Shown: positions 1-581 of the stretch, one piece after another | How positions within the stretch are numbered: the first letter of the stretch is position 1 | Layout: the number at the start of each line of letters is the position of its first letter | From: Neodothiora populina | Lineage: Eukaryota | Direction of reading: 5' to 3' | Length of the DNA stretch: 64,000 nt | Assembly: GCF_041146345.1 (NCBI RefSeq) | Contig: NW_027191414.1 | Coordinates: forward strand, 682,001-746,000 | Notes under the pieces: generated by a model | What the model saw: only the letters and a program-made list of their open reading frames with translations | What the model was told of the DNA's origin: nothing | Databases searched by the model: none | Translations under genes and position numbers: made by a program

Positions 1-581
1 GTCGGTGATGTGTGGGACGACCTGGACAGTGTGGCCGAGGTAATCGCCTCTTCGCTCTTTCTCAATAACGTGCTGGTAAATCTTTCCGGTGGTGATGTTG
101 TTGTCACGCGTGAGGGTAATGTTGAGGTAACGCTCGTAGTTGCCCAGATCGAGGTCGACTTCGCCGCCGTCATCCAGTACAAAACATTCGCCATGCCTTT
201 GATTGGAGATCAGAATGGATATGAAATGTGACGCCGAGGCAATGGCAGCACATACTCCTTAGGATTCATTGTTCCGGCATCCACGTTCAGATAAGGGTCG
301 ATCTTGATTGAAGAGACGTGCACAAGAGGTCAGCGGATGGCGATGCGCGCATTTTTGAAGTGAAAACATATCTTAAGACCCATAGTCTTGAGTAGCAGGC
401 CGGTCGACGAGGCTTCAGCACGTCAATACTTTGTTGCATATTCCGAGTGATATAGAATAAAAAAGCATACCAATGATGCCTTTGCCAACGCCGCTGATAA
501 CACCTGTTTGACGATCAGAAAAGCCATGTAGACCACATGGGAACATTACAACATACCTCCGGATACCAGAACATACTTCAT
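1..581 (-). CDS. URA7: CTP synthase, 5' part (runs off the window start)
   Basis: Exons 581-557, ~504-471, 412-372, 317-256 and 196-1 splice to [119 protein letters not shown]. This is the canonical CTP synthase N-terminus. Confidence 0.96.

Follow-up and report, generated by a model that had tools for sequence, protein, structure and literature searches.

An AT-AC intron with U2-type splice signals in the CTP synthase gene of Neodothiora populina and related filamentous ascomycetes

In the CTP synthase gene of Neodothiora populina, a filamentous ascomycete, a conserved N-terminal peptide is interrupted by a short stretch that begins with AT and ends with AC. Is this interruption a real intron, and if so, by which spliceosome is it removed and why has it kept such unusual ends? 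The analysed stretch of DNA, hereafter the window, is 64 kb long and carries the beginning of the gene at its left end, on the minus strand. Direct reading of the locus, comparison with relatives from public metagenome contigs and named fungal gene models, and published surveys of rare introns converge on one answer. Positions 318-371 (minus strand) very probably represent a genuine spliceosomal intron with AT-AC ends that is removed by the major (U2-type) spliceosome. The gene is laid out in the window as follows.

581-557, minus strand: exon 1 of the CTP synthase gene, from direct reading; start codon ATG at 581-579, encoding MKYVLVSG and base 1 of the next G codon
556-504, minus strand: intron 1, 53 nt, an ordinary GT-AG intron (GTATGT...CAG)
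503-471, minus strand: exon 2, ending with base 1 of an A codon
470-413, minus strand: intron 2, 58 nt, an ordinary GT-AG intron (GTATGC...AAG)
412-372, minus strand: exon 3, 41 nt, with the 3' end GGT CTT AAG (GLK)
371-318, minus strand: intron 3, the AT-AC intron, 54 nt, in phase 0 between GLK and VSSIK
371-366, minus strand: 5' splice site of intron 3, ATATGT, which departs from the U2-type consensus GTATGT in its A at +1
334-329, minus strand: branch-site motif of intron 3, GCTGAC, with the presumed branch A at 330, after which 12 nt follow
320-318, minus strand: 3' splice site of intron 3, CAC in place of CAG
317-256, minus strand: exon 4, beginning with GTC TCT TCA ATC AAG (VSSIK) and ending with the first two bases of an E codon
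255-197, minus strand: intron 4, 59 nt, an ordinary GT-AG intron (GTATGT...AAG)
196-1, minus strand: exon 5, continuing beyond the start of the window

The window holds the N-terminal 119 codons of CTP synthase, and the glutamine amidotransferase part of the enzyme lies outside it. The junction of exons 1 and 2 yields VSGGVISG, matching homologs. Exon 5 matches positions 54-118 of the Pfam family CTP_synth_N (PF06418) with 121.5 bits (cut-off 26.1) and an E value of 5e-35. This match leaves space ahead of it for just the 54 residues that exons 1-4 encode.

Intron 3 reads ATATGTTTTCAC...CCGCTGACCTCTTGTGCAC, and GLK|VSSIK (372|317) results only when it is removed at 371/318. Every GT/GC..AG pair at least 30 nt apart, from exon 3 to the end of exon 4, was enumerated as an alternative, and none of the nine pairs restores the conserved peptide. 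Two of them, the GC-AG pairs 350/303 and 341/303, leave the frame open but delete VSSIK and add unrelated residues. Retention of the intron is in frame (18 codons) and is stopped by the TGA at 332-330, within the branch-site motif. The original prediction, a 54-nt minus-strand interruption with the signals ATATGT...GCTGAC...CAC, failing GT-AG alternatives and an in-frame retention product that hits a TGA in the branch site, agrees with our direct reading in every detail. As a composite pattern (ATATGT N25-55 CTRAY N6-10 YAC), these signals occur twice in the 64-kb window versus 0.30 occurrences expected. The second occurrence, at 18361-18436 on the minus strand, lies inside an uninterrupted 487-aa frame (17963-19426, minus strand) and was set aside as a chance match.

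The unusual ends could be an artefact of two sequencing or assembly errors, one at each end of the intron, or the window could carry a pseudogene copy. Relatives of the gene bear directly on both explanations. Public metagenome contigs were scanned with exon 5, 80 loci were kept, and the two anchor peptides that flank the intron position were located in each. The anchor peptides are contiguous in 61 of these loci, with no intron at this place, and are interrupted in 11; one more locus (L016) has the interruption at a contig edge. Among the remaining loci are six with an upstream anchor unmatched by the pattern (five are in frame by eye, and L077 begins at the contig end) and one, L023, from which the anchor is absent. 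Comparison of the intron across orthologous genes had been proposed together with the prediction as a check, and its outcome is uniform. All 12 intron-bearing loci have AT at the start and AC at the end of the intron at the identical codon boundary, and a GT-AG intron at this position was found in none of the 80 loci. Exon 5 is the same in L014 as in L013 and in L016 as in L017, and after one member of each pair was dropped, 10 distinct relatives remained. Their exon-5 DNA is 72-85% identical to that of the window, with 29-62% identity at third codon positions, and the interiors of their introns are unalignable, at background identity.

Since an artefact would need the same two errors to have arisen 12 times over, in separate metagenome contigs from fungi that are well diverged, the shared AT...AC ends all but rule out the two coincident errors that had been judged unlikely from the sequence of N. 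populina. A dead gene gains some room from the fact that only 119 codons of CTP synthase lie inside the window, and sequencing errors gain some from a low-coverage metagenome run, probably of DNA, whose five short contig pieces on positions 1-6000 all miss 318-371. However, the exons are intact, exon 5 has 92-98% identity with fungal CTP synthases, the other three introns are canonical, and the gene seems to sit in a conserved neighbourhood. In Neophaeotheca triangularis, Aureobasidium melanogenum and Dothideomycetes sp. NU459, the models of CTP synthase and of its velvet-domain neighbour have locus numbers one or two apart and are placed on contigs with the same listed length, which fits the gene order in the window. 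An artefact or a dead gene is therefore extremely improbable as an explanation of the AT-AC ends.

The neighbourhood itself has further features. The velvet-domain gene (Pfam Velvet) lies at 3146-4483 on the minus strand. Its best named matches are from Aureobasidium, with about 50% identity over at least 90% of the query and up to 64% in shorter partial matches, and further named matches belong to other Dothideomycetes. Between the CTP synthase and velvet genes, at about 1300-2320 on the plus strand, lies a gene for an aldo-keto reductase (Pfam Aldo_ket_red), which seems to contain a short intron near 1590-1640. A single 910-aa model labelled Carpinus fangiana (P0091) contains both CTP synthase and velvet domains, and looks like a fused model of a fungal CTP synthase/velvet pair inside a plant assembly.

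With the intron established as a recurrent feature, its signals can be read across 13 sequences (the window and the 12 metagenome loci), or 11 distinct copies after removal of identical ones. The donor is ATATGT in ten sequences, ATAAGT in two and ATACGT in one, so that positions +5/+6 are GT in 13/13. The 3' end is CAC in 11 and TAC in two, a CTRAY branch motif stands 9-12 nt from the 3' end in every sequence, and the lengths range from 49 to 69 nt. The exon triplet before the intron is AAG in each of the 11 distinct copies. Intron 3 thus combines the sequence features that characterize U2-type AT-AC II introns: AT and AC ends, a donor at consensus except for +1, and a U2-type branch site at the usual distance.

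AT-AC ends are also the hallmark first described for U12-type introns, which raises the alternative that intron 3 is removed by the minor spliceosome. U12-type introns have the donor consensus (A/G)TATCCTT and the branch consensus TCCTTRAC, and their branch-to-3'-end range is close to 9-12 nt. The branch distance in our sequences is hence near the U12 range too, and short distances as well as the terminal dinucleotides are shared with this intron type. The internal motifs are not. None of the 13 sequences begins with ATATCC, and GT occupies +5/+6 in all of them; none contains TCCTTRAC by reading, and CTRAY, the U2-type motif of fungi, stands at the branch site instead. The flanking introns, moreover, share the branch distances: 30 of them could be placed in the same loci (29 GT-AG and one GC-AG), and where CTRAY was found (21/30) it lies 9-18 nt from the 3' end. 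For comparison, a published Trichoderma study (PMC4324775) gives a peak of branch distances at 11-14 nt. The host lineage argues in the same direction, since, according to Larue and Roy (PMC10639083), convincing minor introns are missing from Ascomycota and Basidiomycota and most minor snRNAs have been lost, in line with the loss of the minor spliceosome in ascomycetes on which the original prediction relied. That intron 3 is a minor-spliceosome intron has, on these grounds, almost no probability. A search of the 64-kb window with Rfam yielded no minor snRNA; its sole match is a snoR38 box C/D snoRNA at 60974-61060 on the minus strand, which with 46.2 bits is just above the Rfam gathering score of 45.

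The U2-type motifs, together with the report that Ascomycota do without a minor spliceosome (PMC10639083), point to the major spliceosome, and judging from the sequence a major-spliceosome AT-AC intron appears to be the best reading. Genetic work provides a precedent for this reading. According to Sheth et al. 2006 (PMC1557818), a change of the first intron base from G to A is rescued by a change of the last base from G to C in U2-type introns of yeast and human. The paired terminal changes that the prediction had assumed to be compatible with the major spliceosome are thereby supported, as is its central proposal of a natural U2-type AT-AC intron in a key metabolic gene, given the U2-type internal signals, the lack of U12-type ones in the 13 sequences and the AT...AC ends in 12/12 relatives.

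The remaining signals of the AT-AC copies were also compared with those of the flanking introns. The bases +3A, +5G and +6T occur together in 11/11 AT-AC copies versus 8/30 flanking introns (Fisher p = 2e-5), +6T alone in 11/11 versus 12/30 (p = 8e-4), and a CTRAY motif was found in 11/11 versus 21/30 (p = 0.08), although these tests ignore shared ancestry and, with 11 related sequences, overstate independence. The AT-AC donor thus seems closer to consensus than its neighbours, which is a pattern of apparent compensation. It resembles the compensation that Sheth et al. (PMC1557818) describe for GC-AG introns.

Is the intron actually removed? Retention is unproductive in 13/13 sequences, leading to an in-frame stop in eight and to a frameshift in five, and the gene therefore cannot work without excision. 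Two database entries carry the exact GLK|VSSIK junction in uninterrupted reading frames. One is a 591-aa ORF on a 2424-nt contig (P0007), identical to the window's conceptual N-terminus at 117 of 119 residues. The other is a 596-aa ORF on a 2186-nt contig (P0043), identical at 565 of 583 residues to the spliced product of L002, a metagenome locus that carries the AT-AC intron. Judged by ORF and contig sizes only, with contigs hardly longer than the full-length coding sequences, both look like mRNA of near relatives.

A mechanism for excision by the major spliceosome can be proposed from these signals. Briefly, U1 and U6 would recognise AAG|ATATGT, a donor that is otherwise perfect, and the lariat would form at the branch A within GCTGAC, which is followed by 12 nt of intron. 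In the second step, where the terminal G's of an intron normally pair with each other, an A-C pair would take their place, like in the well-known double mutants of yeast and human. The CTP synthase intron could thus serve as a clean natural example in which A and C at the intron termini stand in for the G-G contact. The intron would be old and inherited across several classes of Pezizomycotina. A single change back, to GT-AC or AT-AG, would cripple the splicing of an essential gene, and it is because either single reversion would be harmful that the AT-AC intron may have persisted; it could stay or be lost whole, and its conversion would not be easy. The retention of AT-AC ends over deep fungal divergence, with the other signals at consensus, would fit a compensated state trapped in a fitness valley.

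The loci without the intron are compatible with this proposal. Three fungal-like loci (L019, L034 and L038) have kept intron 2 and lack the AT-AC intron, and a fourth fungal-like locus (L007) is without introns 2-4 and has intron 1 only. As none of these four has a GT-AG intron in its place, the intron appears to be either kept as AT-AC or lost whole.

The CTP synthase intron belongs to the known U2-type AT-AC introns and is not a new kind of system. According to Sheth et al. (PMC1557818), U2-dependent AT-AC II introns occur in human SCN4A and SCN5A and in TAF2 of human and Drosophila, and are conserved and rare: of the roughly 610,000 introns surveyed in five species, 24 belong to this type. 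Like these animal introns, intron 3 combines AT-AC ends with a U2-type 5' splice site except for +1, long conservation among orthologs, and rarity. It differs from them in its fungal CTP synthase host, its length of 49-69 nt across the copies, and the tight CTRAY motif 9-12 nt from the 3' end. Among fungi, the same source mentions xylanase genes "hypothesized to contain AT-AC II introns". Two Sanger-confirmed AT-AC introns are given for Fusarium graminearum (FGSG_08743 and FGSG_10073) in PMC3577648, and 69 of 14,305 RNA-seq junctions are AT-AC in Trichoderma longibrachiatum (PMC4324775). The CTP synthase intron is of the same kind and from the same fungal group as these, and the Fusarium and Trichoderma introns imply that the spliceosome of these fungi handles AT-AC pairs. 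Neither Fusarium gene appears to be CTP synthase, since the gene lengths listed in PMC3577648 (210 and 786) do not fit. A further candidate source, a dermatophyte paper (PMC3091305), uses "AT-AC" only in strings of polyketide synthase domains. Our literature search, which covered titles and the starts of abstracts and left most subscription journals outside its range, returned no paper that names an AT-AC intron in CTP synthase.

One could see in the CTP synthase intron a molecular fossil, i.e., an ancestral U12-type AT-AC intron whose inner signals turned into U2 type while the ends were kept, and which so outlasted the minor spliceosome when Dikarya lost it. If this were true, Pezizomycotina would document, in a form that can be dated, how minor introns are eliminated from a lineage. 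We consider such an origin very unlikely. The intron is in phase 0, and the 61 loci in which the anchor peptides are contiguous, all taxonomically unassigned, are without any intron here. The literature search found nothing related to CTPS as a minor-intron gene. In addition, CTPS1, CTPS2 and "CTP synthase" are absent from the searched supplement text of two surveys of minor introns (PMC11347168 and PMC10639083), which is a weak test.

How widely the intron is distributed can be gauged from gene models and ORFs that read into it. Isoleucine follows GLK in 4/4 such cases, corresponding to a donor that begins with ATH and not with GTN, and twice the residues are "IC", the translation of ATATGT. 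At the other end, H or Y precedes VSSIK or VTSIK in 11/11 cases. These residues show that the intron ends in NAC, as NAG cannot encode them. The named read-through cases span the four classes Dothideomycetes, Eurotiomycetes, Leotiomycetes and Pezizomycetes. Named carriers are Elsinoe australis in Dothideomycetes, grouped with Verruconis and Aureobasidium, which we take to be Dothideomycetes as well; Capronia epimyces in Eurotiomycetes; Amylocarpus encephaloides in Leotiomycetes; and Trichophaea hybrida in Pezizomycetes. The closest named models to the intron-bearing metagenome loci are from Elsinoe, Phlyctema, Ptychographa/Xylographa and Watsoniomyces.

The same comparison reveals how often the intron spoils the automatic gene models of related fungi. 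Among the best 120 matches are 33 named Pezizomycotina models. The junction is right in 11 of them and wrong in 10, and the other 12 begin only downstream of it, so that 22/33 miss the AT-AC junction. Gene finders disallow AT-AC introns, and many fungal genomes thus carry a faulty annotation of an essential and highly conserved gene; partial entries and tiny exons may add to the errors. In fungal annotations, AT-AC is treated as a minor class (Frey and Pucker, PMC7072748). Knowledge of the intron allows repair of the wrong models and offers a test case for annotation pipelines.

Could the unusual ends serve a purpose? The original prediction had added that the intron is "possibly a rate-limiting or regulated splicing step". 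Read in this way, the intron would be a deliberately slow step at which retention leads to a premature stop and tunes the output of CTP synthase. The unproductive fate of the retained transcript in 13/13 sequences, by stop or frameshift, would suit such a role, and introns with the first base changed from G to A and the last to C are spliced "less efficiently" in yeast and human, in the words of PMC1557818. However, regulation through the intron would be at odds with how little of it is conserved. The window intron and that of its closest relative, L002, are 55% identical and have only the splice signals in common. This value is at the level of the background, which has a mean of 51-57% per intron over 45 pairs among the 10 loci with all four introns, and across lineages the interiors are unrelated, with lengths varying from 49 to 69 nt. 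Nor is there a stable RNA structure, as intron 3 with 20-21 nt of exon on each side has a z score of +1.11, and 179 of 200 shuffled sequences reach an equal or better fold. That its remaining signals match the consensus points to efficient and not to weak splicing. The regulatory part of the prediction therefore found no support for the N. populina intron. A regulated step is unlikely, and the AT-AC intron is most likely spliced constitutively.

One subclade, comprising L008, L012 and L013, whose nearest named models belong to lichen-associated fungi, departs from this pattern and hints at constraint beyond the splice signals. Between L008 and L012, the AT-AC intron is 87% identical, versus 76% for intron 2, 59% and 65% for introns 1 and 4, and 52% for third positions of exon 5. 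For L008 and L013 the AT-AC intron and intron 2 are 69% and 68% identical, respectively. Over these two pairs, introns 1 and 4 range from 50 to 65% and exon-5 third positions from 46 to 52%. Within the AT-AC intron, the leading 19 nt hardly vary among the three loci. An intron far more conserved than synonymous sites (87% versus 52%) is not explained by a purely constitutive intron that is under selection for its signals only, and in that clade, represented by three sequences, the conservation could reflect an added function. In the presumed 5' leader of the same three loci, some 60-90 nt before the ATG, there is also a conserved inverted repeat, CCTGGC...GCCAGG, with AAAGGCACC after it.
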